Shown here piece by piece: positions 6,305 through 62,669 of a DNA stretch of 64,000 nucleotides. The position numbers and the translations under genes are program-made. Source of the stretch: Vescimonas coprocola (GTDB lineage Bacteria; Bacillota_I; Bacilli_A; RF39; UBA660); the NCBI GenBank assembly GCA_963660615.1, contig CAVKYE010000005.1:3349-67348 (forward strand). Reading direction: 5' to 3'. The first letter of the stretch is position 1, and every line of letters starts with the position of its first letter. The notes below the pieces were generated by a model. That model was not told the DNA's origin, did not search any database, and worked only from the letters and a program-made list of their open reading frames with translations.

Positions 6305-6333
6305 GGGTTTATGATAAAGATGGGTGATAATTT

Positions 6334-20171: not shown

Positions 20172-20185
20172 AAGAATAAAAGGAG

Positions 20186-22026: not shown

Positions 22027-22076
22027 TATTTTAGTGCATTTTTTTGGTTATCGTGTTATAATTTGTGTGTAGTATT
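22021..22076 (+). promoter_or_regulatory. promoter element, copy 2
   Basis: Same 56 nt as 18251-18306 with 2 mismatches. TGtTATAAT, -10 at 22057-22062. Confidence 0.55.
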
Positions 22077-22097
22077 TAGTTAGATTGGGGGGAAATA

Positions 22098-24002: not shown

Positions 24003-24083
24003 TGACAATATGTCTTTTTTTGTAAAAAAATTTACTTTTTTGTTCTTTTAATGTTATAATGGAGATAATATAAGGAGGTTTTT

Positions 24084-27876: not shown

Positions 27877-27931
27877 AACATCCTTGTTTTTGTGTCTTTT
27901 TTTTTGTATAATTTATTTGGAGGGATACTTT

Positions 27932-35638: not shown

Positions 35639-35772
35639 TTGAATGTGTGGCATGCAATGATGTGTGAGGTTGCTGAGATGCCAGGTTAAGTTGTAAACAT
35701 TTACAATGGCATACTTAGGTTTTTTACACGGAGCAAGTCTATACTGAGATATAGGCGAAAGGAGGATACAAT
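35639..35772 (+). promoter_or_regulatory. structured S10-operon 5' leader
   Basis: ATGCC(A) at 35678-35683 can pair with either GGCAT (35649-35653) or TGGCAT (35707-35712). The latter hairpin is followed a few nt later by T6. Confidence 0.4.
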
Positions 35773-48390: not shown

Positions 48391-49338
48391 ATGAACTTTG
48401 AAAAACCAGAATATAAAATAACAGAGTATGTTGAAAATAATAATTATGGAAAATTCGAATTAGAGCCTTTGGAAAGAGGTTTCGGAAGAACATTAGGTAA
48501 TGCCTTAAGACGCGTTATGTTGTCTTCAATGCCTGGTAGTGCAATTGTTGCTGTTAAAATTGACGGTGTTATGCATGAGTTTCAAACTATGGAAGGTGTA
48601 GTTGAAGATGTTACTGCTATTATCTTGAATCTAAAAGGAATTGTTATTAAAAATAATTCTAAGGAGATTAAGAAGGCTCGTTTATCTGTTCACGATGAGA
48701 GAGTGGTTACTGCTGCTGATATTGAATGTGATTCAGATGTTGAAATTATTAATCCTGATAAGGTAATAGCTACGCTTGCTAAAGGCGGAAAATTAGATAT
48801 GGAATTTATCATTGCTAATGGACGCGGAGCAGTTCTTTCAAATGAGAATAAGAAATATATTAAAGATGAGGCTATTGGGTATATTGCTATTGATGCTTTA
48901 TATTCACCTATTGAAAGAATCAATTATTATATTGATAATGCTCGTGTTGGACAGGATGCTTCATTTGATAAATTAATTATGGAAGTGGAAACAAATGGTT
49001 CAATTAGACCTGAAGAGGCTATGGCATTAGGTGCTAAAATTTTAATTGAACACTTGAATATTGTCACTAACTTGAGTGAAATTGCTGATATCACTGGTAT
49101 TATGAATGCTAAGCAAGAGGATAGTAAGCTTAAGAAACTTGAGACGTCTATTGATGATTTAGATTTCTCTGTTAGAGCTTATAATTGTCTTAAAAGAGCA
49201 AATATTAATACTTTAGGTGATTTGACTGAAAAATCAGAATTAGAAATGATGAAAATACGTAATTTAGGTAAAAAATCTTTAAAAGAAGTTATGGATAAAA
49301 TTAAAGATATGGGGCTTAAATTCCGTGATGAAGATTAA
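48391..49338 (+). CDS. rpoA: DNA-directed RNA polymerase subunit alpha
   Basis: GFGRTLGNALRRVMLSS.., C-terminal domain LDFSVRAYNCLKRANI. Confidence 0.95.
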   Translation: MNFEKPEYKITEYVENNNYGKFELEPLERGFGRTLGNALRRVMLSSMPGSAIVAVKIDGVMHEFQTMEGVVEDVTAIILNLKGIVIKNNSKEIKKARLSVHDERVVTAADIECDSDVEIINPDKVIATLAKGGKLDMEFIIANGRGAVLSNENKKYIKDEAIGYIAIDALYSPIERINYYIDNARVGQDASFDKLIMEVETNGSIRPEEAMALGAKILIEHLNIVTNLSEIADITGIMNAKQEDSKLKKLETSIDDLDFSVRAYNCLKRANINTLGDLTEKSELEMMKIRNLGKKSLKEVMDKIKDMGLKFRDED

Positions 49339-49357
49339 TTAGTTAGGAGGAATATTA

Positions 49358-49714
49358 ATGGCTTATAGAAAATTAGGACGCGATAATAAACATAGAAGAA
49401 GTATGCTAGCTAATTTAACTAAGGATATCATTAATAATGAGAAAGTGATTACTACTGAAACTAGAGCTAAAGAGGCTCGTAAGTTTGTTGATAAGATGAT
49501 TTCTTATGGTAAGGATGGATCATTAGTTGCTAGAAGAAAAGCATTAGCATTCTTACAAAATGATAAAGCGACTGTTAAAAAAGTATTTGATGACTTAGCT
49601 GTTCGTTATGCTACTAGAAATGGTGGTTATACTAGAATTTTGAAATTAGACGAACGTAGAGGCGATGATGCTTTAATGGTTCAAATTGAATTAGTTGAAG
49701 GAGATACTAAATAG
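49358..49714 (+). CDS. rplQ: 50S ribosomal protein L17
   Basis: [15 protein letters not shown].., [13 protein letters not shown]. Confidence 0.95.
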
Positions 49715-49724
49715 TATCTTTTTT
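49703..49724 (+). terminator. rplQ terminator
   Basis: GATACT-AAAT-AGTATC plus T6; includes the rplQ stop codon. Duplicated at 51222-51243. Confidence 0.6.
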
Positions 49725-49749
49725 CTTTACGTAAAGTGTGTTTTTTATA

Positions 49750-49798
49750 ATGATTTATGGAAAATATTACTTGTTTTTTTTTTTTTTTTTGATATCCT
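49750..49798 (+). promoter_or_regulatory. shared upstream element with T17 tract (TTGTTT -35-like, 16-nt spacer, TGaTATCCT)
   Basis: ATGATTTATGGAAAATATTACTTG + T17 (49774-49790) + GATATCCT. Confidence 0.5.
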
Positions 49799-49889
49799 TT
49801 AAAAGGAAGGACTAGATATTTAAAAATAAGAAGCAAATAAAATATGAATAAATATATAGTCATGTAAAAAGAAATGGAGTGATTAAATA

Positions 49890-50873
49890 ATGGAAGTGGT
49901 TAATGCGACTTCAGAAGACGGTTTTGGAGTGCTTAAAAGTTTGAGTGATAGTGAAACTGAAAAATTTACAGATAAATTTATATCTGATTTGAAAGCTTTG
50001 ATAAGTGTAGAGACAGATAATTCAATCGATGAAGAGGAAAGAAAAGAGGCAATAGAAGAAATAAATATTAATTTAGGTGTTATGTTTGAATATGAACGAG
50101 AAAGAGATATTTTTATTCGAAAATTAAAGGATGGATTTTCTGACTGGATGCAAAGGTTTTCTACTTATTATTGGGATGGTTGTAAGTTTATATCAGGTAA
50201 TCTTTCATCACCAGAAATATTATTTGGTATAAGAAAACTTTTAGAAAATAATAAAAGTGATTTTGCGAATGCTATTAGAGAGGCTGGAATAGAATTGGCT
50301 CAAGAAGAACTAAAGGCCTCTAAATCTGCTGAAATAATGACCATCATTGGTAACGACGATGAAGCAAAATTGCAGAACGAAATAAATCAGTTAAACTTAC
50401 AAAATGCAATAGTTCAGACGAGGTTTGAAAACTCAGAATCGAAAGAAAATGAACTATTTAAATTACAAGATCAGTTTAGAAAGAAAGAAATAAGCCCTGT
50501 AGAGTATTCTAAGCAAAAACAAATAATTGAATTAAATATTGAAGCTGACAATTTAAGGCGGGAACTACAAGATGCCAAGTACTTATGGAAATGGGGAGAG
50601 AAAGAAGCACAATTAGCATCACAAGATGTAACTGAAGAGTGTGTAGAAGCAAAAAGCACATACATATTAAAAAATTTAGAAATTGAGAAAATACATGCTC
50701 AACTGGCTTTCTTAAATGGTGAAATTTCTCCTCAGGAGTATAGTGAAGAACTACGCGGAATAGACAAAAGAATAGAAAATCATCTTCGCATTAATGCCAT
50801 GAATAATTATTTTCCACAAGAAAATACATTTTATGATGATCAAACAGTAAGCAAAGGTGGAAGGGGTAGATAG
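49890..50873 (+). CDS. hypothetical acidic coiled-coil protein, paralog A
   Basis: RBS GGAGTGA. No signal peptide. E/K/Q-rich heptad-like middle. N-terminal 146 aa identical to paralog B and related C-terminal tail (FPQE..YDDQT.SKG). Confidence 0.75.
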   Translation: MEVVNATSEDGFGVLKSLSDSETEKFTDKFISDLKALISVETDNSIDEEERKEAIEEININLGVMFEYERERDIFIRKLKDGFSDWMQRFSTYYWDGCKFISGNLSSPEILFGIRKLLENNKSDFANAIREAGIELAQEELKASKSAEIMTIIGNDDEAKLQNEINQLNLQNAIVQTRFENSESKENELFKLQDQFRKKEISPVEYSKQKQIIELNIEADNLRRELQDAKYLWKWGEKEAQLASQDVTEECVEAKSTYILKNLEIEKIHAQLAFLNGEISPQEYSEELRGIDKRIENHLRINAMNNYFPQENTFYDDQTVSKGGRGR

Positions 50874-50934
50874 AATTAAAAGCTAATCACTTAGTAGCCA
50901 AGTTCAATATGTTGTCGTTCTAGTACAAATAAAA

Positions 50935-51233
50935 TAAATGATAAATCATTGAAAAAAGTTATAAATAAAATCATAGATTGTGATTTAAATTTTGTGATGA
51001 AGATTAATAGTTATGATGGAAATAAATAGTGTATAGAAAATTAGGATGCTAGAAGAAAAGCATTAGCATTCTTACAAAATGATAAAGCGACTGTTAAAAA
51101 AGTATTTGATGACTTAGCTGTTCGTTATGCTACTAGAAATGGTGGTTATACTAGAATTTTGAAATTAGACGAACGTAGAGGCGATGATGCTTTAATGGTT
51201 CAAATTGAATTAGTTGAAGGAGATACTAAATAG
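50935..51233 (+). pseudogene. decayed rpoA 3' end plus internally deleted rplQ copy
   Basis: 50940-51046 is a diverged copy of 49270-49378 (RBS AGGAGG to ATGATGG, ATG GCT to ATA GTG). It is joined to an exact copy of rplQ nt 49528-49714. A 149-bp deletion lies between ATTAG microhomologies. Confidence 0.8.
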
Positions 51234-51847
51234 TATCTTTTTTCTTTACGTAAAGTGTGTTTTTTATAATGATTTATGGAAAATATTACTTGTTTTTTTT
51301 TTTTTTTTTGATATCCTTTAAAAGGAAGGACTAGATATTTAAAAATAAGAAGCAAATAAAATATGAATAAATATATAGTCATGTAAAAAGAAATGGAGTG
51401 ATTAAATAATGGAAGTGGTTAATGCGACTTCAGAAGACGGTTTTGGAGTGCTTAAAAGTTTGAGTGATAGTGAAACTGAAAAATTTACAGATAAATTTAT
51501 ATCTGATTTGAAAGCTTTGATAAGTGTAGAGACAGATAATTCAATCGATGAAGAGGAAAGAAAAGAGGCAATAGAAGAAATAAATATTAATTTAGGTGTT
51601 ATGTTTGAATATGAACGAGAAAGAGATATTTTTATTCGAAAATTAAAGGATGGATTTTCTGACTGGATGCAAAGGTTTTCTACTTATTATTGGGATGGTT
51701 GTAAGTTTATATCAGGTAATCTTTCATCACCAGAAATATTATTTGGTATAAGAAAACTTTTAGAAAATAATAAAAGTGATTTTGCGAATGCTATTAGAGA
51801 GGCTGGAATAGAATTGGCTCAAGAAGAACTAAAGGCCTCTAAATCTG
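51047..51847. repeat. 801-bp tandem-duplication block, copy B
   Basis: See copy A. Confidence 0.9.
51269..51317 (+). promoter_or_regulatory. shared upstream element with T17 tract (copy of 49750-49798)
   Basis: T17 at 51293-51309. Confidence 0.5.
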
Positions 51848-52410
51848 ATGAGGTTAATGCTTATATTGGTGATAATAAAGAAAGCAAATTACAAAATGAA
51901 ATAAACCAACTATTATTACAAAATGATATAGCACAGATGCAAATTGAAATTCGAAAAATGAACTTATTTGACCAATCACACCAATTAATTATTCAAAGGA
52001 AAAGTGAAAAAATAAAAACTTTGGAATATTCAAAACAACAAAAATTAATTGATTTAAAAATAGAAGGTTGTATTTTGGAACAGGAAGCACGAAATTATTT
52101 TACAGAATATCATATATATGCAAAACGAATTCAATTAGGAGATATTGAAGTGCATCTTGGTAGGAAATTAGCCGCTGAAAATAGGCACGATTACAAATTA
52201 AGAAGTTTAGAAAAGGAACAAATAGAAGTACAAGAAATTTATCTAAGTGGAGGTTGTTCTATTCAGGACTATCAAGAGGACATAAGAGAAATAGATAAAA
52301 AAATAGAAATAGAAAATAATAGGCATGCCAATTTTATGCAAACATTTTTTCCACAAGAACAACCTATTTATGATGATCAAACAGCAAGCAAAGGTGAAAG
52401 ACATAGATAG
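51409..52410 (+). CDS. hypothetical acidic coiled-coil protein, paralog B
   Basis: See paralog A. The middle ~150 aa have diverged. Confidence 0.75.
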   Translation: MEVVNATSEDGFGVLKSLSDSETEKFTDKFISDLKALISVETDNSIDEEERKEAIEEININLGVMFEYERERDIFIRKLKDGFSDWMQRFSTYYWDGCKFISGNLSSPEILFGIRKLLENNKSDFANAIREAGIELAQEELKASKSDEVNAYIGDNKESKLQNEINQLLLQNDIAQMQIEIRKMNLFDQSHQLIIQRKSEKIKTLEYSKQQKLIDLKIEGCILEQEARNYFTEYHIYAKRIQLGDIEVHLGRKLAAENRHDYKLRSLEKEQIEVQEIYLSGGCSIQDYQEDIREIDKKIEIENNRHANFMQTFFPQEQPIYDDQTASKGERHR

Positions 52411-52482
52411 TATTAAAATATATTTAATGAAATTTATAATATTAATTAAAAATAAATATATTTCAAAAGTGTTATAAAGAGG

Positions 52483-52520
52483 CTAAGTAGAAATAAATGG
52501 TTTCTATTTAGTCTTTTTTT
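52483..52520 (+). terminator. rho-independent terminator
   Basis: CTAAGTAGAAA-loop-TTTCTATTTAG (one G:T pair), then TCTTTTTTT. Confidence 0.6.
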
Positions 52521-52552
52521 ACTACCCATTTACTAAGTTTTACACACAATAC

Positions 52553-52602
52553 ATGATTTATGGAAAATATTACTTGTTTTTTTTTTTTTTTTTTGATATA
52601 GT
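52553..52602 (+). promoter_or_regulatory. shared upstream element with T18 tract forming a near-optimal promoter
   Basis: TTGTTT (52574-52579), 17-nt spacer made of T15+GA, TGaTATAGT (-10 at 52597-52602). T18 spans 52577-52594. Confidence 0.6.
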
Positions 52603-52629
52603 GGTGATGTGGATGAAAGGAGAGATTTG

Positions 52630-53250
52630 ATGGCTAAGTTTTTTGAAAGGTTTGGTTCTTTGGTTCCAGGACACAAAAAAAGAAATTTTTTAAAGGTAAT
52701 TGATGCTTATAATTCTGGACTTATTTCTTATAAGGTGCTTTTTGATAATGTTGAGAATATGCCTAAGGGATTAGAAAATGATAAGGATATTGCTTTAAAA
52801 TTACTAAGTACTTCTGGAGAATTTTATGGTATGTTTTCTAAAAAGGTTAGAAATAATCCGAAAGTTATTATGGCAGCGGTTTCTAGTTATGGTGATAATT
52901 TGAGGAATGTCCCTTTAAAATATAGGAATAATAAAGATGTTGTTCTTGCGGCTATGTCTAATAATGTTTTAGCTTATGAGTTTGCTAGTGATGAAGTTAA
53001 AAAAGATGCTGCTGTTAGAAATTATGCTAAAAATCATAGGAGAGAAGCTATTGCTAATATGAAAACTTTACGGGTTGAAGAAGATGATAAATCTAATTCT
53101 AACAAAGGTGTTTCTAAGGTAGATCGTTTTGATGATGTATTTGTTTCTGATTTTTCAAAGACTCCTGTTATTCTTGATGAGATGATGGTTGAAACTGATA
53201 ATTTTACTTTGAATTCTTCTGATTCAAGTAAAAGTTTTAAATCTAGATAA
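52630..53250 (+). CDS. DUF4116-like repeat protein
   Basis: ATG after AAAGGAGAG. Repeats of the type D.DI.LKLL.., NPKVIMAAVSSYGDNLRNVP, NKDVVLAAMSNNVLAYEFAS. Confidence 0.65.
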   Translation: MAKFFERFGSLVPGHKKRNFLKVIDAYNSGLISYKVLFDNVENMPKGLENDKDIALKLLSTSGEFYGMFSKKVRNNPKVIMAAVSSYGDNLRNVPLKYRNNKDVVLAAMSNNVLAYEFASDEVKKDAAVRNYAKNHRREAIANMKTLRVEEDDKSNSNKGVSKVDRFDDVFVSDFSKTPVILDEMMVETDNFTLNSSDSSKSFKSR

Positions 53251-53273
53251 ATTATTTTTATTATTTAAATATT

Positions 53274-53294
53274 GATACTTTTGTATCTTTTTTT
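53274..53294 (+). terminator. rho-independent terminator
   Basis: GATAC-TTTT-GTATC plus T7. The same hairpin recurs at 55223. Confidence 0.55.
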
Positions 53295-53312
53295 GTATAA
53301 AATGTTTTTGTT

Positions 53313-53366
53313 ATGATTTATGAGATATAATTTTAACTTGCATTATTTTTTATTGTGTGATATAGT
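53313..53366 (+). promoter_or_regulatory. diverged copy of the shared upstream element; good sigma-A promoter
   Basis: ATGATTTATGAGATATAA.., TTGCAT (53338-53343), 17-nt spacer with an interrupted T tract, TGaTATAGT (53361-53366). Confidence 0.55.
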
Positions 53367-53393
53367 ATTTGCGTGTTTTTTGGGGGGATATAT

Positions 53394-55220
53394 ATGGATG
53401 AGAAAACTTATGGAGAGTTAATTGGGGCTGATGAGGATAAGGTTATTTCTGATTTTATGCGGTTAATGGATCTTGGGCTGGTACAGGAATTTGATGGTAA
53501 ACGATGTGTTTTTGAAACTATGTCAAATGGTGTTTTAAGATCTATTAATGATCTTAAGGAAATAGAACTTGCTTTAAAAGTTGCTGATGAAGTCTTTTCT
53601 CAAAAGAACGATGAGGCTGATAGAATTTTATATGCTATTATGAAAACTCAAGATAAGTATAATGAAAAGGAACATTTGTCTTTTAATGCAGAGGCTATTT
53701 TTAATTGTTTTCGTGAAATTAAAAATGGTATTATGTTTGTTACTCGTAATGGTGATGCTAGAGAAATTGTTTCCAATGTTATTAACAAAAACTTATATGA
53801 TTTGGATTTTGAGGAGCGTGTTCGAACTAAGGCTAAGGTTTTTTTAACAGAACGTAGTTTTAAAGATAGGGTAGACAAGGATTGGAGGCCTACTTGGCGT
53901 TTTGCGTGTATTTCACTGGAAGATATTGGCTTTTTAATAGATGTTGTTCATTTAAATTATAAAATGATTGTTGAACTTGATAAAAGTATTGATTTATTTA
54001 AAGAAAAACCGATAAATAGAAATAATTTTAATTATTTTCCTAAAGTTTCATTAATATATGCTATATCATGTATGGAACAGTTTATATCGGATAAGAGAAA
54101 GTTAGAAAATTTATCACCTAGTTCACTTTTTCATAAGAATTTAGATGAACTTAAGGAAATTGCTTATAACCTTCGTACTTATGTAGAATCTGTAGGTAAA
54201 TTACCTGTGTTAAAAAAAGATGCTAATAATAAATTTAGTAATCTTATTGAGAAAGATTATTTACGTGTAAGGGCATTTGATAATGACTTATCAAAAGTTA
54301 ATGAGACAGTTTTTGAAGATATGAATTTTAATAATTCTAGTGTTAATGGGCAAGGTGCTAATTCTATGAGTTCTTTTGGACGTGAAGAAAATCCTATTCT
54401 TGATAGTGCTTCTTTTGGTGGTAATGCTGTTAATAAAGGTTCTTATAATGATGATTGTGTAATTACTGCGGAACATCCTTCTTTGAATGGCGTTAAGCTT
54501 TTGGTCGTTGCTGATGGTGTTGGTGGTAGTGAAAATGGTTATCTTGCGTCTACTTTATTTTCTGTTGATATGCATAATTGGTTTAATAATTTGACTGTTT
54601 CTGATTTACAGAATAATGATGTTAGTGTTCTTTTGACGAATGCTATTAAGGCATCGGATAGGCATATTGCAGATGTTTATTCTAATATGCGTCCTAGTCC
54701 TTGTACTGTTGCTTCTTGCATTTTAATAACTAATGATAATACTTATGTTAGTAGTGTTGGTGATACTAGGGTTTATTTGGAGAAAAGTGGACAGTTAAAT
54801 CCTATTAAGAGGTGTGAAAATCATTTGGATAAGGCTAATAAATTAGGTGTGGATATTTTGTTTGATGATGTTGAGACAGCAAGTAGGGCACCAGAGGGTT
54901 ATATTGGTTATGGATCTTCTAAGTGGTATTATTGTGATCCTATGGTTGATGTGATACCGACTGCTAGTTATGATGGTATTTTGGCGGTTACTGATGGTGT
55001 TTATAAGGATGTTGATGATACTAATTTGAATGCAATATTTGAGGGATGTTATTCTGATGATGTTGCTGAAAGTATTTGTGCTTTGGCTCATCATGGTGAG
55101 ATTTCTCCTATTTATGATAATATTGGTTATCATAAGACTGATGCTGGACTTAGGTTACATGATGATGCTTCTGTGGCTGTTTATAAGAAATATGCTAAGG
55201 TTAGAACTTATGAGTACTAA
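53394..55220 (+). CDS. PP2C-family Ser/Thr phosphatase domain with ~370-aa unknown N-terminal region
   Basis: VVADGVGGSENGYLAS, SVGDTRVY, LAVTDGVY and C-terminal DDASV motifs in PP2C order. ATG after TGGGGGGA. Confidence 0.7.
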   Translation: MDEKTYGELIGADEDKVISDFMRLMDLGLVQEFDGKRCVFETMSNGVLRSINDLKEIELALKVADEVFSQKNDEADRILYAIMKTQDKYNEKEHLSFNAEAIFNCFREIKNGIMFVTRNGDAREIVSNVINKNLYDLDFEERVRTKAKVFLTERSFKDRVDKDWRPTWRFACISLEDIGFLIDVVHLNYKMIVELDKSIDLFKEKPINRNNFNYFPKVSLIYAISCMEQFISDKRKLENLSPSSLFHKNLDELKEIAYNLRTYVESVGKLPVLKKDANNKFSNLIEKDYLRVRAFDNDLSKVNETVFEDMNFNNSSVNGQGANSMSSFGREENPILDSASFGGNAVNKGSYNDDCVITAEHPSLNGVKLLVVADGVGGSENGYLASTLFSVDMHNWFNNLTVSDLQNNDVSVLLTNAIKASDRHIADVYSNMRPSPCTVASCILITNDNTYVSSVGDTRVYLEKSGQLNPIKRCENHLDKANKLGVDILFDDVETASRAPEGYIGYGSSKWYYCDPMVDVIPTASYDGILAVTDGVYKDVDDTNLNAIFEGCYSDDVAESICALAHHGEISPIYDNIGYHKTDAGLRLHDDASVAVYKKYAKVRTYEY

Positions 55221-55222
55221 TG

Positions 55223-55243
55223 GATACTTTTGTATCTTTTTTT
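55223..55243 (+). terminator. rho-independent terminator
   Basis: GATAC-TTTT-GTATC plus T7. Confidence 0.55.
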
Positions 55244-55261
55244 AGTAAAATGTTTTTTGTT

Positions 55262-55318
55262 ATGATTTATGGAAAATATTACTTGTTTTATTTTTTGTTA
55301 TGTGGTACTCTATATACT
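55262..55318 (+). promoter_or_regulatory. shared upstream element, T tract interrupted
   Basis: ATGATTTATGGAAAATATTACTTGT + TTTATTTTTTGTT.., TATATACT further downstream. The geometry is unclear. Confidence 0.35.
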
Positions 55319-55331
55319 CGAGGTGATTTTT

Positions 55332-56558
55332 ATGCAAAAAAATCAAAAATATTGGTACGAGTTTATTTATAATGGTGGTAGTCTTTGGGTTGTTCCAGAG
55401 AGTTTTGTTACTCAGAAAATGCGATCTTTTTATTTTAAAAACTGTCATTTGTCTAAAGTTTATGCGGAATGTTTTGAATCAAATAGATTTGATATGTTTT
55501 CGGAGACTCAAAGGGAACAAATGATGAGTGAGGAATATTTTTTTAAGACTGGTGATTTAACTTTAATTCCTTCTAAATGTGTGACTGAAAAGATGGCTAA
55601 CAGTTTTATAAATAATGGTGGGGATATTTCTTTGGTTCCTTTAGATGTGTTATCTTTTGATATGTGCCTTAAGTATGTATCTATGGGGGGTAATATAAAT
55701 AATGTTCCATCTAAGTTTAGAACTCGGAAATTATATGATTTGTGTTTTTCTAAGTTGAGGAATATTTCTTTGATTCCAGATAAATATAAAACTCCTTCTA
55801 TGGAGAAGACTGTTTCTTTAGCTAGGGGTAAAATGGGGAGGTTATATAGTCTTTTATATGATGATTTAATTAATCTTTCTGATGGTGAAATGAAATTGGA
55901 TGATTTTTGTGATAAGTTTAATTTTACTGATTCTGAAATGAGAAGACTTATTGAATTAATTGGTAAGGTTGATATTGATTTATATGAAAAAATAAATGGT
56001 TTATTTTTAAAGAAACAAGAAGATTATGATGCTATTATGATGGAAAAGGCTAAGGGTATTGAAAGTATGGTGGAAAAGTTTAATCTTGATGATTTTAATG
56101 TAATTTCTTCTTCACAGAAAATTGAGTTTGCTTATGAATTTTATGCTAAGGCGCCATTTTGTTCTATTGATGAGATGTGGAATTTTTTGAATGTTCATTT
56201 TGATGAAAGTAATTTGGCTGTTTTGTTTTTTAGAAGAACTCTTAAGTTTGGACAACAGGTTCAGCCTTTAAAGTGGTTAGAGGAATATAATTTGTGTGAG
56301 AGTATGGGACCTAGCGAAAGACCTGGTGTTTTAAAGTTCTTGGCGGAAACTGGTGATATTAGAACTGTAACTAGAACTGAGGTTGATTTTCTTTTGGATG
56401 TGCTTGATTCTTTTGAGGTTCCACTTAAAAATTGTATTGTTAAAGAGGCTATAAGGCAGTATGCTGTTGGTGATTTGGATAAATTTTTGGATGATTTAAA
56501 AGGGAATGATGATTTTGAAAATGTGTCTAATTCTGTTTTTTCTAAGAATATTAAATGA
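55332..56558 (+). CDS. hypothetical repeat protein
   Basis: ATG after GAGGTGA. Five ~23-aa repeats of the type (N)GG.h..hP..hhT.KM (NGGSLWVVPESFVTQKM, KTGDLTLIPSKCVTEKM, NGGDISLVPLDVLSFDM, MGGNINNVPSKFRTRKL, LRNISLIPDKYKTPSM). Confidence 0.65.
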   Translation: MQKNQKYWYEFIYNGGSLWVVPESFVTQKMRSFYFKNCHLSKVYAECFESNRFDMFSETQREQMMSEEYFFKTGDLTLIPSKCVTEKMANSFINNGGDISLVPLDVLSFDMCLKYVSMGGNINNVPSKFRTRKLYDLCFSKLRNISLIPDKYKTPSMEKTVSLARGKMGRLYSLLYDDLINLSDGEMKLDDFCDKFNFTDSEMRRLIELIGKVDIDLYEKINGLFLKKQEDYDAIMMEKAKGIESMVEKFNLDDFNVISSSQKIEFAYEFYAKAPFCSIDEMWNFLNVHFDESNLAVLFFRRTLKFGQQVQPLKWLEEYNLCESMGPSERPGVLKFLAETGDIRTVTRTEVDFLLDVLDSFEVPLKNCIVKEAIRQYAVGDLDKFLDDLKGNDDFENVSNSVFSKNIK

Positions 56559-56644
56559 TATTCTTTTTTATTTACGTAAAGTTTGTTATTTTTTAAATAT
56601 ATTACCAAAAAACATTGTTTTTTTGTTTTTGACTGATTTTTTGT

Positions 56645-56675
56645 TTAAAAAAAGAATTACTAACTCGTAATTCTT
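56645..56675 (-). terminator. terminator of the arylsulfotransferase gene (bidirectional-looking hairpin)
   Basis: AAGAATTAC-TAACTC-GTAATTCTT with T7 on the minus strand. Confidence 0.6.
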
Positions 56676-58629
56676 AAAATTTTACAGTTTTATTTGTTTT
56701 ATATATTTTATTATTTATTTCGATGTAGATGGTGTATTTTCCTTTTAAGCCTTCACTATTTATGTATTTGTTTATGGTGATTCCTTCTTTGGTTTCTTTT
56801 TCAGTGAATACATCTACACATAAGGCGGTGTATGGGTGTTTGCTTACTCTAACGTTGTAGACTAGTGATGTCATATTTTTGTATAGTAGTATGTTTACGT
56901 TGGCTCCTTTTTTGAAGGTTCCTTCTAGGACTAGTCTATCTTCTTCTTTGGTTAATTTTATTTTATGTTTTTTATAATTTTTATCTATTTGTTTTGCTGA
57001 TAGGATAAATCCGTTTCTTTTGTCATTGTATTCTGTTTGTCCTAGGGTTCCTAGTTTTTTGGCTTTTTTGAAGGTTCTTTTTTTATCTGCTTTTGTGTAG
57101 AGACTCATTTTTTCTACTCGGTAGTTATTGGTGTTTAGTTTTAGTTCGAAAACTTTTTTATCATTTATTAGTTCTACGGTGTCACTTAATAGTTCGTCTG
57201 AACCGGCTATTCCAGCGGGTTGATTTTGTATTTTTCCATCTTTATATGATATTCCACCTGAATGGATTATGTAATGATTTTTTTCTATGTAGTCTACATC
57301 TGATATATATGGAGAGTAGAATTTACTTCCTCTTTCTTTTCCATATTGCCATATTTGGGTTGCGGTCATATTTTTGGTGTTTATTTTATACATTACACCT
57401 CTACTATAGCTATTTTCGGCTGGTGTGTATTCTTCTTTGTTTTTTGATTTATTGTTTCCGTTATCAAATAGGAATAGGTATCCTTCTTTGGTTATCATTG
57501 CGGCGTGTTGGGACCATTGAAATTCGGTTTTTTTATTGCCTTTTTTTAAAAAGTATTTTTGGTATTTTTTGTTCCAGTTTGTACTGTCACCTAGAATCCA
57601 ATTTAGTTTTCCACTGGTGTAGTCTATGTTGATGACGGCGTCTTGATGACGTCCTGATAGGGTTATGGAGTTTGTTTTTTTGTCATACCATACGGAGTTG
57701 TTGTGGAACCAATCGTATTCGCTCCAGTTTTCGCTTTTGCCATCTTCCATGTTTAGGATTTTTTTCAGGTCAATTTTTTTGACTATTTTACCGGTTTTTC
57801 TATCTAGTTCTACGATGTAATCTTCTACTGTTCCATATTCATTGTTGAAGTCGTCTGAAGCTATTAATAGGTTGCCATTTTCCATTTCGTAGTAGTCGTG
57901 ATGATATCCACCTTTTAGACTATATTCTGCATATATTTTTCCCATTAGGTCCATTTCATATAGGCCTGTCATATAATATGGAGTGTTTATTAGTCTTTCG
58001 GTACTTAGTAATAAGTGTCCATTTTTTAGTCTTGTATTTTGCCATAGGGCTTCGTTTGTTAAGTACCATCTGACATCACCGTTTATGTCGTAAGCACAGG
58101 TATATCCTTTGCTTGATGGGGTGAAGAAATATAAATCGTTTGTTAGTTTGTCTTCGTCTTTATAAACGTCTTTTACGGTTACAAAGTCATCTGGTAGTTT
58201 GTCTGTTTTGATTTTTATTTCTTTTTTTGTTTTTCCATATTCTATGATAATGGTGTTTTCTTTGTCTGGGTAAAGTCCATAAATATTTAAATAGTGTTTT
58301 TTGCTTTTTTCAGCGGTGTATGTAAAGGTTGTTTTTTCACTTTTTCCTTTTATGGTTACTTTTGGACTTACTTTATTTTTGGTTTCAAACATTATTAGGG
58401 CGGTTAGTGGTGAGTTGCCGTATGGATTTAATATTACGTTTGGTCTATTTATGGTGTATCCTTCGGTTTTAAATTTTTTTTCTATTTTTTCTTGTTTTGT
58501 TATTAGGGATTCTTTTGTTTTTAATTCTTTTCCGTTATTTGAAATTTGGTTTAGGGTTATTATGGTGATGAGGGCTATTGCTAGTACGATTAATAATGTT
58601 ATTACGATTATTTTTATCTTTTTTTTCAT
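56674..58629 (-). CDS. arylsulfotransferase (ASST) family protein, membrane-anchored/secreted
   Basis: N-terminal signal-anchor. WFHNNSVWYD.., LSGRHQDAVINIDYTSGKLNWILG, typical of the ASST beta-propeller. Confidence 0.75.
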   Translation of the reverse strand: MKKKIKIIVITLLIVLAIALITIITLNQISNNGKELKTKESLITKQEKIEKKFKTEGYTINRPNVILNPYGNSPLTALIMFETKNKVSPKVTIKGKSEKTTFTYTAEKSKKHYLNIYGLYPDKENTIIIEYGKTKKEIKIKTDKLPDDFVTVKDVYKDEDKLTNDLYFFTPSSKGYTCAYDINGDVRWYLTNEALWQNTRLKNGHLLLSTERLINTPYYMTGLYEMDLMGKIYAEYSLKGGYHHDYYEMENGNLLIASDDFNNEYGTVEDYIVELDRKTGKIVKKIDLKKILNMEDGKSENWSEYDWFHNNSVWYDKKTNSITLSGRHQDAVINIDYTSGKLNWILGDSTNWNKKYQKYFLKKGNKKTEFQWSQHAAMITKEGYLFLFDNGNNKSKNKEEYTPAENSYSRGVMYKINTKNMTATQIWQYGKERGSKFYSPYISDVDYIEKNHYIIHSGGISYKDGKIQNQPAGIAGSDELLSDTVELINDKKVFELKLNTNNYRVEKMSLYTKADKKRTFKKAKKLGTLGQTEYNDKRNGFILSAKQIDKNYKKHKIKLTKEEDRLVLEGTFKKGANVNILLYKNMTSLVYNVRVSKHPYTALCVDVFTEKETKEGITINKYINSEGLKGKYTIYIEINNKIYKTNKTVKF

Positions 58630-58757
58630 CTTTTTACCTCCTACATTTTTTATTTTACTTGATTATTTTTTTAAATACAATAAAGTAAAGGTAGAAGTTT
58701 ACTAAACTTTTGGTTGAGTTATGGTTTTGTTTTATTTGAAATATTTTGTGATTTTTC

Positions 58758-58788
58758 TTGACTTAGAGTTAGCTCTAGGTGTTATAAT
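58758..58788 (+). promoter_or_regulatory. MerR-type promoter with 19-nt spacer and dyad operator
   Basis: TTGACT, 19 nt (TAGAGTTAGCTCTAGGTGT containing the TAGAG..CTCTA dyad), TATAAT. Confidence 0.65.
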
Positions 58789-58807
58789 TTTGTTGTAGGA
58801 GGGTTAT

Positions 58808-59164
58808 ATGACGATTGGGGATATAAGTAAAAAGTATGATTTATCTTGTGATACGTTGAGGTATTATGAAAAAATTGGCCTTCTTAGGAATGTTAAAAGA
58901 GTTAATGGTAAGAGGGATTATTCTTCTTTGAATGAGAAGGATTTGAATTTTATTCTTTGTATGAAAAATGCGGGTTTTGATTTGGAAAGTATTATTAAGT
59001 TTTTGAATCTTTATGAGTTGGGTGATGATACTTTGGACGAGAGAATTTCTATGCTTTTTAGGCAAAGGGAAAAGCTTGTGGATAAAATTAAAGAAAAGGA
59101 AAAAATTATGGAATTTTTGAATTATAAAATTAATTATTATGAGGGAAAGAGGAATGTTAAATGA
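58808..59164 (+). CDS. MerR family transcriptional regulator
   Basis: MTIGDISKKYDLSCDTLRYYEKIGLL HTH. Confidence 0.85.
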   Translation: MTIGDISKKYDLSCDTLRYYEKIGLLRNVKRVNGKRDYSSLNEKDLNFILCMKNAGFDLESIIKFLNLYELGDDTLDERISMLFRQREKLVDKIKEKEKIMEFLNYKINYYEGKRNVK

Positions 59165-59610
59165 AAGTGATTGTATATTATTCTTATAGTGGAAATACTA
59201 GGAGAATTGCGAATAAATTAAAGGATAGATTAGGCTGTGATATTTTTGAAATTACACCTTTAAAGCCTTATACTAATGATTATAATAAGCTTGTGGAAGA
59301 GGCAAAGGGGTATGCTTTGGATAATGCGATGCCTCTTATTAATGAGGTAAATTTGGATAAGTATGATGAGATTGTTTTACTTACGCCTGTTTGGTGGTAC
59401 ACGTATGCTTCGCCTATAAATACGTTTTTAAATTCTTATGATTTTAGTGATAAGGTTTTTTACGCTATTGCTACTAATGCGGGGTGGCTTGGTCATACTT
59501 TTGAGGATATTGAAAAGATAGTATGTGTTAGAAAAACTTTGAATTTGGTTTTTGATAATGGTGTTTTAAAAAATGAAGATGATTTTGATAATTGGGTGTG
59601 TAATTTATAA
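59161..59610 (+). CDS. flavodoxin-like protein
   Basis: MKVIVYYSYSGNTRRIA N-terminus; ATGA overlap with the merR-like gene. Confidence 0.75.
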   Translation: MKVIVYYSYSGNTRRIANKLKDRLGCDIFEITPLKPYTNDYNKLVEEAKGYALDNAMPLINEVNLDKYDEIVLLTPVWWYTYASPINTFLNSYDFSDKVFYAIATNAGWLGHTFEDIEKIVCVRKTLNLVFDNGVLKNEDDFDNWVCNL

Positions 59611-59629
59611 TGGAAAGTTGGTGTAATAT

Positions 59630-60364
59630 ATGATAAAACAAACTGCAGGAAGAGATACTTTGGGGGAATTTGCGCCTAAGTTCGCACATTATAATGATGA
59701 TATTTTATTTGGAGAGAATTGGAATGATAGTTCTATTGATTTAAAAACTAGATGTATGATTACGGTTGTTTCATTAATGTCTAGTGGGATTACAGATAAT
59801 TCTTTAAGGTATCATTTGGAAAATGCGAGAAAAAATGGTGTTACTTGTGAGGAGATGGCTGGAATTATAACTCATACGGCGTTTTATGCTGGATGGCCTA
59901 AGGCTTTTGCGACTTTTAATTTGGCTAAGGAGGTATATGCTTCTGATTTGAAAACTGTAAATCATGGTGGCTTTTTTGGTTTAGGGGATTTTAATGATGC
60001 TTATGCTGATTATTTTTCTGGTAGATCTTATTTGAATCCGCTTGTAAAGACGGATGATGTGTTTTTGGCTAATGTGACTTTTGAACCTGGGTGCCGTAAT
60101 AACTGGCATATTCATCATGCTAAATCTGGTGGGGGACAGATTTTAATTTGTGTTGATGGAGATGGTTTTTATCAGGAAGAAGGAAAAGAGGTTAGAAGAT
60201 TACATGTTGGTGATGTTGTTGTTATTCCTGCTAATGTGAAACATTGGCATGGTGCTACTCATGATTCTTGGTTTAGTCATATTGTGGTGGAGGTAGTAGG
60301 AGATGAGAGGTCTAATGAATGGTGTGAGCCTGTTAGTGATACTTGGTATGATAAAATTTTGTAA
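59630..60364 (+). CDS. carboxymuconolactone decarboxylase (CMD)-family domain fused to cupin domain
   Basis: LDLKTRCMITVV..HTAFYAGWPKA (CMD), then NNWHIHHA..GDVVVIPANVKHWHGA (cupin). Confidence 0.7.
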   Translation: MIKQTAGRDTLGEFAPKFAHYNDDILFGENWNDSSIDLKTRCMITVVSLMSSGITDNSLRYHLENARKNGVTCEEMAGIITHTAFYAGWPKAFATFNLAKEVYASDLKTVNHGGFFGLGDFNDAYADYFSGRSYLNPLVKTDDVFLANVTFEPGCRNNWHIHHAKSGGGQILICVDGDGFYQEEGKEVRRLHVGDVVVIPANVKHWHGATHDSWFSHIVVEVVGDERSNEWCEPVSDTWYDKIL

Positions 60365-60366
60365 TA

Positions 60367-61269
60367 ATGGAAAGGAAGATGTTTGTGGAAAAATCTAAGG
60401 TGTATTTTATTAAAGGTGTTACTGAAGAAAATTTGGTAAAGGTTTATGATGCTTTGGGGATTGATTTAAAAGGTAAGACTGCGGTTAAACTTCATTCTGG
60501 AGAGGATGGTAATCAGAATTATGTAAGGCCTTTGTTTGTGAAATCATTAATTGATAAGGTTTCTGGTACTGTTGCTGAGTGTAATACGGCTTATAGTGGG
60601 GCTAGAAATTCTACTAGCAAGCATGAGAAACTTATGGAGAAACATGGTTGGACTAAATATTTTGATGTTGATATTTTAGATAGTGAGGGTCCTGATTTGG
60701 TTTTGGATATTCCTTTTGGTCATGTTATTAAGAAAGATTATGTTGGAGGAAATATTAAAAATTATGATAGTATGCTTGTTTTGTCTCATTTTAAGGGTCA
60801 TCCAATGGGAGGCTATGGCGGTGCTTTGAAACAATTATCTATTGGTGTGGCTTCTTCAAGGGGAAAGGCTTGGATTCATTCTGCTGGCAGGATAACAGAT
60901 CAAAGTAAATTATGGGATAATTTGCCTTCACAAGATATGTTTTTAGAGTCTATGGCTGATGCGGCTTTTGCGGTTCATAGGGAATTTGAAGGTAATATTG
61001 CTTATGTAAATATTATGTGTAATATGTCTGTCGATTGTGATTGTTGTGCGGTGGCTGAAGACCCTTGTATGAAGGATATTGGTATTTTGGCTAGTGCTGA
61101 TCCTATTGCTATTGATCAGGCATGTATTGATATTGTTTATAATTCTGATGATGAGGGTAAAAGTCATTTGATTGAAAGGATTGAATCAAGAAATGGTATT
61201 CATACTATTGAGGCTGCTAGTGAGCTTGGTTTTGGTAGTAGGGAATATGAACTTATTACTATTGAGTAG
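60367..61269 (+). CDS. DUF362 domain protein (start 60367 or 60379)
   Basis: SKVYF.., VKLHSGEDGNQNYVRP, LSHFKGHPMGGYGGALKQLS pattern of DUF362. Confidence 0.7.
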   Translation: MERKMFVEKSKVYFIKGVTEENLVKVYDALGIDLKGKTAVKLHSGEDGNQNYVRPLFVKSLIDKVSGTVAECNTAYSGARNSTSKHEKLMEKHGWTKYFDVDILDSEGPDLVLDIPFGHVIKKDYVGGNIKNYDSMLVLSHFKGHPMGGYGGALKQLSIGVASSRGKAWIHSAGRITDQSKLWDNLPSQDMFLESMADAAFAVHREFEGNIAYVNIMCNMSVDCDCCAVAEDPCMKDIGILASADPIAIDQACIDIVYNSDDEGKSHLIERIESRNGIHTIEAASELGFGSREYELITIE

Positions 61270-61497
61270 AGCTTTTTTACAGTTTTAAGTTATTATGTAC
61301 CAAAAAGGAAACATTTTAATTACTTTACGTAAATTTATTTTGATGAATTATCTTCTTTAAATATTACTTTTGGCTATAAAAAAATATAATGATTATTTTA
61401 AAACACTGTGTGTAGTTATTCACAGTTTTTTTGGCTATTAAAACTTAGGACACATATTTATGTTAGTTAAATAAGATATATTTAGGAGAGGATTTTA

Positions 61498-61770
61498 ATG
61501 AAAAATATTTCCCCACAACTTTATACTTTAAGTGCGGTAGCAGTAGGATTTATTTTGACTGAAGATAATAATGCTGATAGGCAAAATGCGATTGGTAACT
61601 GGCTTATGCTTGTGTCTCAGCTTATTTGCACTAATGCTTATTTTGTGGCTTTTCGTGATTCTAATAAATCTTCTTTTAATGGTGTTAGTGATGATGATAC
61701 TATTGATATGCTTTATAAGATGAAGGATGCTTTGGAAAAGGAGATAGATGAACTTAAAAAGAAAATGTAA
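61498..61770 (+). CDS. hypothetical small protein
   Basis: RBS AGGAGAGG; 90 aa with one or two hydrophobic segments. Confidence 0.45.
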   Translation: MKNISPQLYTLSAVAVGFILTEDNNADRQNAIGNWLMLVSQLICTNAYFVAFRDSNKSSFNGVSDDDTIDMLYKMKDALEKEIDELKKKM

Positions 61771-61840
61771 AATGTGTGGAATTTCATTTACAAAATTATG
61801 TGTCTATTATATAATAAGTAATTAGAAATGGGGAATTGTT

Positions 61841-62590
61841 ATGAAGGCATTAATTACGGGGGCGAGTTCTGGTCTTGGTGCGGATATGGCTAGGGTTTTA
61901 GTGAGTGAAGGTTATGAGGTTGTTTTGGTGGCTAGAAGAAAGACTAGGCTTGAGAAGCTTGCTAAAGAGCTTGGTGATAAGGCTAGTGTTATGGTGATGG
62001 ATGTTTCTAGTACTTATAATTGTATGGAGCTTTATAGGAAACTTAAGAAGGAAAATATTGACATTTTGATTAATAATGCGGGTTTTGGTTTATGTGGTGA
62101 GTTTTCGGATACTAAGCTTGATAAGGAACTTGATATGATTGATTTGAATGTGAAGACGGTGCATACTTTGACTAAGCTTTTTTTGGAGGATTTTAAAAAG
62201 AAAGATAAGGGTTATATTTTAAATGTGGCGTCTTCGGCTTCTTTTATGCCTGGGCCTTTAATGAGTACTTATTATGCTTCTAAGAGTTATGTTTATAATC
62301 TTTCAATGGCTATTTATGAGGAGTTAAGGCGTGATAATAGTAATGTTTCTATTAGTGTTTTATGTCCTGGACCTGTGGATACTGAGTTTAATAGGGTGGC
62401 TAATGTGAAGTTTGGTATTAAGGGTTTAGATAGTATGGATGTGGCAAGGTATGCTGTTAAGAATATGTTTAATGAGAAACTTATTATTATTCCTAGTGTT
62501 AGGATGAAAGTTTTAGTATTTTTGACTAGGTTTGTACCTAGAAAATTATTACTTAAGATTGTTTATGGTATTCAAAGTAAAAAGAGATAA
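61841..62590 (+). CDS. SDR family oxidoreductase
   Basis: ALITGASSGLG, NNAG, YYASKSY catalytic motif. Confidence 0.85.
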   Translation: MKALITGASSGLGADMARVLVSEGYEVVLVARRKTRLEKLAKELGDKASVMVMDVSSTYNCMELYRKLKKENIDILINNAGFGLCGEFSDTKLDKELDMIDLNVKTVHTLTKLFLEDFKKKDKGYILNVASSASFMPGPLMSTYYASKSYVYNLSMAIYEELRRDNSNVSISVLCPGPVDTEFNRVANVKFGIKGLDSMDVARYAVKNMFNEKLIIIPSVRMKVLVFLTRFVPRKLLLKIVYGIQSKKR

Positions 62591-62669
62591 TGATAGGACC
62601 ATTTGTTGATGGTTTTATTTGTTGAAAAAGTGGGTAATTTATATTATAATAATGTAAGTGGTGATATAA

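Follow-up and report, generated by a model that had tools for sequence, protein, structure and literature searches.

Phase variation through repeats in promoter spacers has been documented mainly in pathogens (Mycoplasma, Neisseria, Haemophilus and Helicobacter). In Neisseria meningitidis, poly-G or poly-C tracts lie between the −35 and −10 elements of porA and opc, and the vlp genes of Mycoplasma hyorhinis are ON at a tract length of 17 A. The vlp tract is a poly-A run in a promoter region common to the gene family (Citti & Wise 1995, as summarised in PMC10502178), and Vmm of Mycoplasma mycoides has a TA repeat in its promoter spacer (PMC10502178). At sabA of Helicobacter pylori, T-tract length yields multiphasic output via the axial alignment of UP-like elements with the core promoter, a design common to several genes (PMC4081817). 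The locus described here belongs to uncultured gut Bacilli that have small genomes and are known from metagenomes only, and the same design appears to be used many times per genome in them, before members of the very large DUF6273 family and before DUF4116 and PP2C island genes. It looks like an ordinary slippage-driven gene switch in a new lineage, tied to an unusually conserved box.

Putative box promoters and their genes in the window

The window (the whole 64-kb stretch of DNA that was analysed) contains two T17 tracts and one T18 tract, each directly preceded by a box of 23–24 nt, ATGATTTATGGAAAATATTACTTG, and followed by GATATCCT at both T17 copies and by GATATAGT at the T18 copy. The first-pass annotation had read these tracts as promoter spacers, and its coordinates, upstream box and downstream extended −10 proved exact, as did its geometry: N16 at both T17 copies, TTGTTT-N17-TATAGT with TG at −15/−14 at the T18 copy (52574–52602), and TTGCAT-N17-TATAGT across an interrupted tract at a degenerate copy (53338–53366). 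Two more box copies, beyond those it listed, lie at 6264 and 55262. The features are as follows.

6264–6304, + strand: box (C variant), TC, T7 and extended −10 TGaTAAAAT; spacer of only 8; invariant in 5 assemblies
6334–7197, + strand: LamG-like gene with SipW-type signal, behind box promoter 6264–6304
49528–51847, + strand: tandem duplication (49528–50328 = 51047–51847, 100% identical, 801 nt, offset 1519)
49750–49773, + strand: box copy 1, whose last three bases, TTG, open a −35-like TTGTTT (49771–49776)
49774–49790, + strand: T17 tract, putative spacer of promoter 1; T16+GT in GCA_963652445.1
49790–49798, + strand: extended −10 TGaTATCCT of promoter 1 (hexamer 49793–49798; 16-nt spacer)
49890–50873, + strand: gene A, an orphan protein of 327 aa with many charged residues, by eye a coiled coil; leader of ~90 nt from the −10
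51269–51292, + strand: box copy 2, within the 801-nt perfect duplicate of copy 1
51293–51309, + strand: T17 tract, putative spacer of promoter 2; duplicates tract 1
51309–51317, + strand: extended −10 TGaTATCCT of promoter 2 (TTGTTT-N16-TATCCT)
51409–52410, + strand: gene A′, a 333-aa paralogue; first 146 aa as in gene A, C-terminal half diverged
52553–52576, + strand: box copy 3, with an upstream flank independent of copies 1 and 2
52577–52594, + strand: T18 tract; T19 in GCA_963652445.1, T14 in SRR19415659 and SRR19415678
52594–52602, + strand: extended −10 TGaTATAGT of the T18 promoter (hexamer 52597–52602; 17-nt spacer)
52630–53250, + strand: gene for a 206-aa DUF4116 protein, RBS AAAGGAGAG at 52617–52625
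53313–53366, + strand: degenerate box and TTGCAT-N17-TGaTATAGT; T-rich spacer interrupted; stable version, identical in 6 assemblies
53394–55220, + strand: PP2C-domain gene, behind degenerate-box promoter 53313–53366
55262–55311, + strand: exact box and TTGTTT-N17-TGgTACTCT; spacer interrupted (T4AT6G...); identical in 5 assemblies
55332–56558, + strand: gene for a 408-aa protein, behind box promoter 55262–55311

The −10 hexamer is separated from the ATG by 28 nt at copy 3, where the RBS is followed by the ATG at 52630, and by ~90 nt at copies 1 and 2, also with an RBS before the ATG; this longer leader of genes A and A′ could hold a second promoter. Because T17 copies 1 and 2 lie inside the perfect duplication, which comprises the 3′ part of rplQ, the box promoter and gene A codons 1–146 (Logan contigs end 30 nt into it), they count as one observation. 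In GCA_963652445.1 (contig CAVJTL010000009.1) both read T16-G-T-GATATCC, with 0 substitutions over 4.1 kb, still a long tract, and the label 'uninterrupted T17' therefore depends on the assembly. The proposed trio of uninterrupted tracts is thus present in the window, but with its T17 pair reduced to a single duplicated unit that is interrupted in one assembly.

Base composition predicts ~0.0015 T runs of ≥17 nt per window, the longest T run averaged 11.6 nt in 200 first-order Markov simulations, and the only other homopolymers of ≥9 nt in the 64 kb are an A9 at 11423 and a T9 at 27897. All three tracts exceed the length (~9 or more uninterrupted nucleotides) of a hypermutable SSR. The 24-mer box was matched five times, with 0 matches expected by chance, and in 250 kb made up of the window and related loci, 19 of the 21 A/T runs of ≥11 nt directly follow a box. 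A generic promoter scan returned 47 promoter-like sites versus 43 in shuffled sequence, that is, no excess.

The gene A protein had no Pfam or PADLOC match, PADLOC gave nothing credible for the island proteins, and a homologue search with the 327-aa protein found only the window's own two paralogues; in exact look-ups, neither this protein nor L17 was on record. The window's target proteins are without signal peptides, unlike classical phase-variable surface antigens.

Tract length between strains and spacer length across copies

Between the window and GCA_963652445.1 there are 0 substitutions in 14.8 kb and only three differences, one per tract, T19 in place of T18 being the sole difference within 10.7–11.4 kb. 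These differences (±1 T, T17 versus T16GT) may stem from a miscalled homopolymer in one or other assembly. The change from T17 to T16GT is more than a single slippage step. Tract 3 is T14 in SRR19415659 and SRR19415678; the strain concerned is a distinct one, with 4 SNPs over 2.1 kb, and T14 was found again in a second sample of the series. Across these comparisons, made on assembly consensus sequences rather than reads, the flanking kilobases carry 0–4 substitutions. The controls did not vary: the box with T7 at 6264 was the same in 5/5 assemblies, the 53313 copy in 6/6 and the 55262 copy in 5/5. Only the long uninterrupted tracts are polymorphic in length, and both the strain variation that the first-pass annotation had proposed to look for and the stability it claimed for the interrupted 53313 copy were found. 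Look-ups of DUF6273 relatives, in which near-identical places were collapsed, covered one locus (L008) in HiFi, long-read and short-read assemblies, all with T17; such reproducible calls make it unlikely that the T14, T18 and T19 differences are pure noise. Consensus length is not always variable, as this same tract illustrates.

The box followed by a T run is common to several uncultured Bacilli MAGs, where it precedes genes for DUF6273, DUF4116 and SipW-type secreted proteins; one HiFi MAG, OZ007022.1, has 11 box copies with tracts from T7 to T18. Tract length differs between closely related places: T8, T8 and T15 at orthologous loci with 93% identical flanks, T18 (L002) and T36 or more (L011) at one locus, and T17 versus T7 in paralogues with identical flanks (L008 and L012). 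A (GT)0–2 unit adjoining the tract also varies among relatives. The DUF6273 family has >2000 relatives at E ≤ 1e-30, and one family member has no box. A shorter core pattern recovered eight further divergent box copies. Exact-box scans gave 0 matches in JGI metagenome contigs and 0 in IMG/VR viral contigs, and the element is therefore regarded as absent from those collections and not phage-borne.

An objective search for TGnTAnnnT 3′ of the box, in the window and its relatives, gave a spacer of exactly 17 nt at every interrupted copy that it matched (53322 and 55271 in the window, L007 and L030 elsewhere), and a further interrupted copy (L001) has 17 by eye, with TATAAG as −10; the 17-nt spacing is kept in the stable copies. 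Spacers formed by uninterrupted tracts measure 13, 13, 14, 16, 16, 16, 17, 17, 17, 18, 18, 18, 18, 19, 19 and 21 nt. Moreover, TTGTTT-N17-TATAAT with a T-rich spacer precedes the housekeeping gene rsmA/ksgA at 27884, so that comparison with the interrupted copies and with this promoter of the same design backs the −35/spacer/extended −10 reading. Seven box copies have spacers of only 6–11 nt, with a perfect box in each. A pure −35 role for TTG leaves these copies, and the invariance of the one in the window, unexplained.

A probable slippage-prone promoter spacer and competing readings

The box promoters are probably contingency promoters with a slippage-prone poly-T spacer. The box would supply a fixed −35-like TTG, the poly-T run (with 0–2 GT units in relatives) would be the −35/−10 spacer of a σA-type promoter, and TGnTAnnnT would serve as its extended −10. 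Slipped-strand mispairing at replication would alter tract length and hence spacer length, with an optimum expected at 17 nt, weakening at 16 or 18 and shut-off at ≤13 or ≥20, acting on each gene separately. The DUF4116 gene would accordingly stand at the optimum in the window (T18, spacer 17) and genes A and A′ one short of it (T17, spacer 16), while in GCA_963652445.1 a spacer of 17 (T16+GT) would stand before genes A and A′ and one of 18 before the DUF4116 gene. With its spacer of 13, the promoter of the DUF4116 gene is presumably off in SRR19415659 and SRR19415678. We infer from the sequence where transcription starts, how expression responds and that the change is reversible. Extended −10 promoters depend little on a −35 element, and spacer changes may therefore tune rather than switch these genes.

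The conservation and spread of the box far exceed what a −35 hexamer would need, and its part beyond TTG is the only element that might be new. A literature search for the box string found no match. By eye, a σ54 promoter was rejected (wrong spacing, and no GG in the C variant), and comparisons with −35/−10 pairs of σD, σH and ECF factors, with cre, Fur and LexA boxes, with the CodY box (10/15 matches) and with the Spo0A box (6/7, in the C variant only) ended in rejection or in a lead only. One tentative possibility is that an unrecognised transcription factor specific to the clade uses the box as its operator, or that the box is a composite UP/−35 element; with the hypermutable T tract and GT units the box would then form a portable contingency-promoter cassette. 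On the same tentative footing, this cassette would have been placed before accessory genes unrelated to one another, in several genera of uncultured gut Bacilli, and its output, again a tentative suggestion, would depend on the helical phase of the box relative to the extended −10, with tract classes near 7–8, 17–18 and 37–39. The cassette may also be a recombination joint between strain-variable gene cassettes. If true, such a module would join a stochastic switch to a shared regulator and define a whole phase-variable regulon.

A related and rather doubtful reading takes the extended −10 alone as the promoter, the T tract setting the distance and helical face between box and −10; it is equally doubtful whether the 23-nt box binds a clade-specific regulator or the RNA polymerase α-CTD in a UP-like manner, TTG not itself being a −35. 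The box is perfect at 22/22 specified bases in relatives whose housekeeping genes are only 67–72% identical to those of the window, although these loci were picked by exact box match and their box conservation is partly by construction. With a 17-nt spacer the box would fall at about −55 to −33, the UP-element zone, with GAAAATATT at the proximal UP position in our own alignment. Tract classes of about T7–8, T14–19 and T36–39 would mark steps of roughly 10 and 20 nt, but in a small sample, with too few copies for a test of 10-nt periodicity and with the T36 and T39 tracts at short-read contig ends. The short-spacer copies, perfect in the box and in the window's case stable in 5 assemblies, fit this arrangement, as does the precedent of the sabA T tract (PMC4081817). 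Against it, a distance of exactly 17 nt between TTGNNN and the −10, kept in the interrupted copies, is the signature of a −35/−10 pair, and the degenerate 53313 copy has kept TTGCAT-N17 despite losing much of its box.

That the tracts have no regulatory role, and reflect mutational bias in an AT-rich, maybe mismatch-repair-poor genome or sequencing and assembly noise, seems improbable. Two of the three differences from GCA_963652445.1 do resemble homopolymer miscalls, the L008 tract is identical in its three assemblies, runaway tracts of T36–T39 exist and no surface role is obvious for the genes targeted in the window. Nonetheless, the 4-nt difference between T14 and T18, seen in a distinct strain and in two samples, is atypical of consensus error, long pure tracts are almost confined to positions directly behind a box and keep their purity at many loci in several species despite point mutation, and spacer values centre on 17.

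Least credible of all is that the tract lies in the transcript, as the U-run of a terminator with a box hairpin or as a 5′-UTR element with the start inside or upstream of the box: most C-variant boxes are preceded by (C)AAG or GAG and can form a stem of 8–10 bp (CAAGTGAT / ATTACTTG) with an 11-nt loop and the T run directly after, and the box often lies just 3′ of an upstream stop codon, but the left arm is missing from the island copies in the window, the fold of copy 3 (−4.9 kcal/mol, z = +1.44) is no better than those of shuffles, AU-rich stems with a sequence-conserved loop are atypical of terminators, separate terminator-like hairpins stand upstream of the boxes (GATAC-TTTT-GTATC with T7 at 53274 and 55223, CTTTACGTAAAG at 49727), the box has no room for both a −35 and a −10, nearly all copies have a −10, RBS and ATG after the tract at promoter-like distances, and 49300–56700 had no Rfam match at E ≤ 1. 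The TATAAT at 49745–49750, which the first-pass annotation had offered as an alternative −10 and which would suit a start upstream of the tract, falls away as well, being found only in the duplicated copy and in neither copy 3 nor relatives. For the window's copies a Rho-independent terminator, which calls for a stable GC-containing hairpin with a short loop right before the U-run at a gene's 3′ end, was rejected; the combined promoter and terminator scan flagged none of the tracts.

Comparison with known switches

With spacer slippage as the preferred reading, the box plus T run offers a simple sequence handle for finding contingency genes of these Bacilli, and metagenome assemblies are predicted to break or mis-call at such sites; the conserved box itself can be put to the test as a concrete candidate for a new regulatory site.

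Of the described systems, sabA resembles the locus in having a poly-T that borders the core promoter and a design found at several genes. Its tract, however, lies upstream of the −35, whereas here the tract is downstream of TTG, which places it in the spacer provided that TTG serves as −35; the sabA geometry would fit only if TTG were not the −35 and the box were a UP-like or activator site. As in Vmm and porA/opc, an SSR would form the −35/−10 spacer, and gain or loss of units would change spacing and promoter strength, but those are other repeat types in other organisms, each at one promoter that is specific to its gene and lacks a common upstream box, and in relatives of the window an adjacent (GT)0–2 unit varies too. 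Points in common with the vlp system are a promoter that contains an A:T homopolymer of ~17 nt, a promoter cassette conserved over several genes, each with its own tract so that combinatorial expression is possible, a host in the same broad Bacilli/Mollicutes radiation and, in relatives of the window, targets from one large family (DUF6273) of variable proteins with an N-terminal anchor. The differences from vlp are that the sense strand here carries the T run, that the genes are unrelated (DUF4116, PP2C, orphan, LamG and DUF6273) and not one lipoprotein family, that the window's targets are without a signal peptide, that ON/OFF behaviour is a prediction, and that a 23-nt box is conserved across genera.

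Poly-T tracts and promoter geometry

Three poly-T tracts are the only homopolymers longer than 9 nt in the 64-kb window, for which base composition predicts only some 0.0015 T runs of 17 nt or more. Each follows a copy of a conserved 23/24-nt motif (hereafter, the box) that ends in the TTG of a candidate −35 hexamer, TTGTTT, and chance expectation for the 24-mer is none. The first-pass annotation had located the tracts and their flanking motifs correctly and its promoter geometry was confirmed at the T18 copy, both T17 copies and the copy with an interrupted spacer; the boxes that it listed are real, but it had missed two others (55262 and 6264).

Tract 1, T17, 49774-49790: after ATGATTTATGGAAAATATTACTTG, then GATATCCT
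Tract 2, T17, 51293-51309: after ATGATTTATGGAAAATATTACTTG, then GATATCCT
Promoters of both T17 copies: TTGTTT-N16-TATCCT
Tract 3, T18, 52577-52594: after ATGATTTATGGAAAATATTACTTG, then GATATAGT
Tract 3 promoter, 52574-52602: TTGTTT-N17-TATAGT, TG before the hexamer
Downstream of the tract 3 promoter: RBS AAAGGAGAG and ATG at 52630
Interrupted-spacer promoter, 53338-53366: TTGCAT-N17-TATAGT
55262: exact box with interrupted T-rich spacer
6264: C-variant box, TC+T7 next

While all three tracts claimed are present, tracts 1 and 2 count as one observation because each lies in one unit of a tandem duplication that is perfect over 801 nt (49528-50328 = 51047-51847). The duplication starts inside rplQ and comprises the 3′ part of rplQ, a box promoter and 146 codons from the start of the gene downstream.

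Spacers were measured from TTGNNN to the hexamer in an objective scan for TGnTAnnnT downstream of the box. In all interrupted copies matched by the scan (window 53322 and 55271, and retrieved loci L007 and L030) the spacer is exactly 17 nt, as it is, by eye, at a further retrieved locus, L001, with hexamer TATAAG. With uninterrupted tracts, the spacer ranges over 13-21 nt and is centred on 16-18, the pattern expected if 17 nt were functional and pure tracts wandered around it. The housekeeping gene rsmA/ksgA is preceded by the same −35 hexamer, a T-rich 17-nt spacer and TATAAT (27884-27912). Geometry and comparison thus support placement of the T tract between putatively functional −35 and −10 elements, and we consider it on balance probable that the tracts are slippage-prone promoter spacers acting as gene switches.

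Genomic context of the island

The window has 31% G+C, a strong G>C skew and an S10-spc-alpha ribosomal operon whose last genes, rpoA-rplQ, end at 49714. In Firmicutes, rplQ and the ECF-transporter ATPase gene are usually neighbours; here they lie ~13 kb apart (49715-62669, with the ATPase gene at 62670), and annotation of a same-species contig, L025, gives ecfA-ecfA′-ecfT-truA as following. The intervening segment looks like an island inserted in a normally tight junction. Its first 7 kb hold five genes, none encoding an obvious signal peptide; a box promoter lies ahead of each, and ahead of some there is also a small hairpin with a T-run:

Gene 1: orphan 327-aa protein
Gene 2: 333-aa paralogue of the 327-aa protein
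Gene 3: DUF4116 protein
Gene 4: protein with a PP2C domain at its C-terminus
Gene 5: 408-aa protein, no family

An arylsulfotransferase gene on the minus strand follows, then MerR, flavodoxin, CMD-cupin protein, DUF362 and SDR genes. The island genes are bordered by two families of short elements resembling terminators, so each gene looks like a self-contained promoter-gene-terminator unit; one family of these elements is the palindrome CTTTACGTAAAG plus T-run (49717-49746, 51236-51265, 56562-56591) and another GATAC-TTTT-GTATC plus T7 (53274-53294, 55223-55243).

The second duplicated unit, noted together with 50940-51046 just before it, has a degraded rpoA end plus a shortened pseudo-rplQ (51008-51233), and short-read contigs from other samples end 30 nt into the repeat. 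The 327-aa and 333-aa proteins are 67% identical overall; their genes share 146 identical first codons, then diverge, and are again alike at their 3′ ends (81% DNA identity), a mosaic pointing to gene conversion or to a diversifying C-terminal half.

Elsewhere, a tandem duplicated gene pair (18327-25919) encodes AMP-binding enzymes of 614 and 634 aa, and after each comes a hybrid histidine kinase/receiver protein, of 605 and 611 aa. The window also contains a T-box leader (12740-12938) upstream of dUTPase/DHH/metG genes, an S10-Clostridia ribosomal leader (35649-35758), a tRNA (1985-2057) and a SpoVT/AbrB-type regulator gene (12195-12713), the last hinting that this small-genome Bacilli lineage retains sporulation-related regulators.

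Tract length among strains and relatives

Other same-species assemblies (99.6-100% identity) were retrieved by exact-protein look-ups, and the between-strain comparison that the first-pass annotation had proposed did reveal different tract lengths:

Tract 3, GCA_963652445.1: T19 (T18 in the window), no other difference in 10.7-11.4 kb
Tract 3, Logan SRR19415659: T14, 4 SNPs versus the window in 2.1 kb
Tract 3, Logan SRR19415678: T14
Control 6264, box + T7: identical in 5 assemblies, SRR19415659 included
Control 53313, interrupted copy: identical in 6 assemblies
Control 55262, interrupted copy: identical in 5 assemblies

Tracts 1 and 2 are uninterrupted T17 in the window assembly but T16-G-T-GATATCC at both copies in GCA_963652445.1, whose contig CAVJTL010000009.1 has zero substitutions relative to window 48411-52552. 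The sole non-tract indels among same-species assemblies are at 56618 (C inserted after 56617 in contigs L026 and L028) and near 61378 (an A7 run one A shorter in L026). Among relatives, orthologous loci with 93% identical flanks have T8, T8 and T15, another pair T18 versus T36 or more, and a paralogue pair with identical flanks T17 versus T7. As read from these assemblies, tract instability depends on length, the hallmark of slipped-strand mutation. The tract at one retrieved locus, L008, is T17 in HiFi, long-read and short-read assemblies, probably of one strain; independent assemblies can therefore agree on such a tract, and its consensus length does not differ in every case.

An exact-pattern scan for the 23-mer in one genome per GTDB species found 18 loci, nearly all in MAGs named 'uncultured Bacilli bacterium', where housekeeping genes share only 67-72% DNA identity with the window; the 1.52-Mb HiFi MAG OZ007022.1 has 11 box copies. 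Within 196 kb, box copies had either 0 or at least 5 mismatches, with no intermediates. The T-runs at the 18 loci measure 7 (three loci), 8 (three), 15, 16 (two), 17 (three), 18 (four), 36+ and 39, followed in relatives by (GT)0-2, GATAT, RBS and ATG. The GT unit varies at L009, L010, L002 and L018 (OZ007022.1) and at L042 (1364-1385), a pattern that the T17 versus T16+GT difference fits, and the spacer may combine two adjacent slippage-prone repeats, T-run and GT. Both T36+ (L011, 3601-3638) and T39 (L015, minus strand, ~20-75) adjoin contig ends in the short-read MAG CALVXV01; they represent either tracts that have expanded out of control or artefacts of assembling hypervariable tracts. Of the 21 A/T runs of at least 11 nt found in 250 kb (the window plus related loci), 19 directly follow a box, a twentieth being truncated by the locus edge. 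A shorter core, SGAAAATATTACTTG + T7, occurs in eight further divergent copies in metagenomes, sage-grouse caecum among them. Downstream genes in relatives mostly encode DUF6273 proteins, which are anchored in the membrane by their N-terminus and whose family exceeds 2000 members at E <= 1e-30; the rest encode SipW-type signal proteins (by eye) and a DUF4116 protein.

Alternative readings and comparison with known systems

The box, with 23 conserved bases, is more than a −35 hexamer needs. At a 17-nt spacer it covers about −55 to −33, where UP elements and sites for class I/II activators are located, and seven copies have spacers of only 6-11 nt, where TTG is unable to serve as −35. At 6264-7197 in the window, a C-variant box with a TC+T7 spacer (8 nt) lies upstream of the gene for a LamG-like protein whose N-terminus bears a SipW-type signal; this promoter is identical in 5 assemblies, the perfect box being kept though its TTG cannot be −35 at spacer 8. 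The T tract might instead set the helical phase between box and extended −10, as a rheostat; tract lengths falling roughly into classes (~7-8, 14-19, 36-39) hint at such phasing, but the tracts are few and the longest lie at short-read contig ends, and we consider this unlikely.

By eye, the box resembles the CodY box (10/15) and, in its C variant only, the Spo0A box (6/7), as leads only; its string was not found in the searchable literature. In two strains, GCA_963619315.1 and SRR13434609, agreement with the window breaks off precisely at 53311, where a box begins, so the box may double as a recombination joint and island content varies between strains at box boundaries. Both (L026 1-51, L028 1-26) match downstream of 53311 and have unrelated upstream sequence with the direct repeat AAGACATTNTCNCAAGTTAA.

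Calling errors could account for the ±1 T and T17/T16GT differences from GCA_963652445.1, which is otherwise identical to the window. That the tracts are noise or have no regulatory role is improbable. They display two defining features of contingency loci: the repeat is long and uninterrupted, and its length is polymorphic while the flanks are conserved. Least credible, and very improbable, is that the T tract belongs to the transcript, as terminator U-run or 5′-UTR: the upstream TATAAT that the first-pass annotation offered as an alternative −10 is found only in the duplicated copy, being absent from copy 3 and every relative, and the box is too short for both promoter elements; most C-variant boxes do follow (C)AAG, giving an 8-10-bp stem and 11-nt loop directly before the T-run, but the terminator reading fails because the left arm is missing from the window's island copies (copy 3 z = +1.44), the loop sequence is conserved, the boxes have other hairpins upstream of them and a terminator scan left the tracts unflagged. 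The tract/box region had no Rfam match.

Slippage-prone promoter spacers of this kind would fall into the same class of phase variation as the poly-G/C promoter spacers of Neisseria porA and opc. Judged from sequence, their design matches promoter-located simple-sequence-repeat phase variation as in the Mycoplasma hyorhinis vlp genes, with a poly-A tract in conserved promoters, and in Vmm, with a TA repeat in the promoter spacer (PMC10502178). The T-tract rheostat of H. pylori sabA would be the parallel for the helical-phasing reading (PMC4081817). The promoter-repeat switch design would here occur in a lineage known from metagenomes only, with the widely conserved box possibly one new ingredient.
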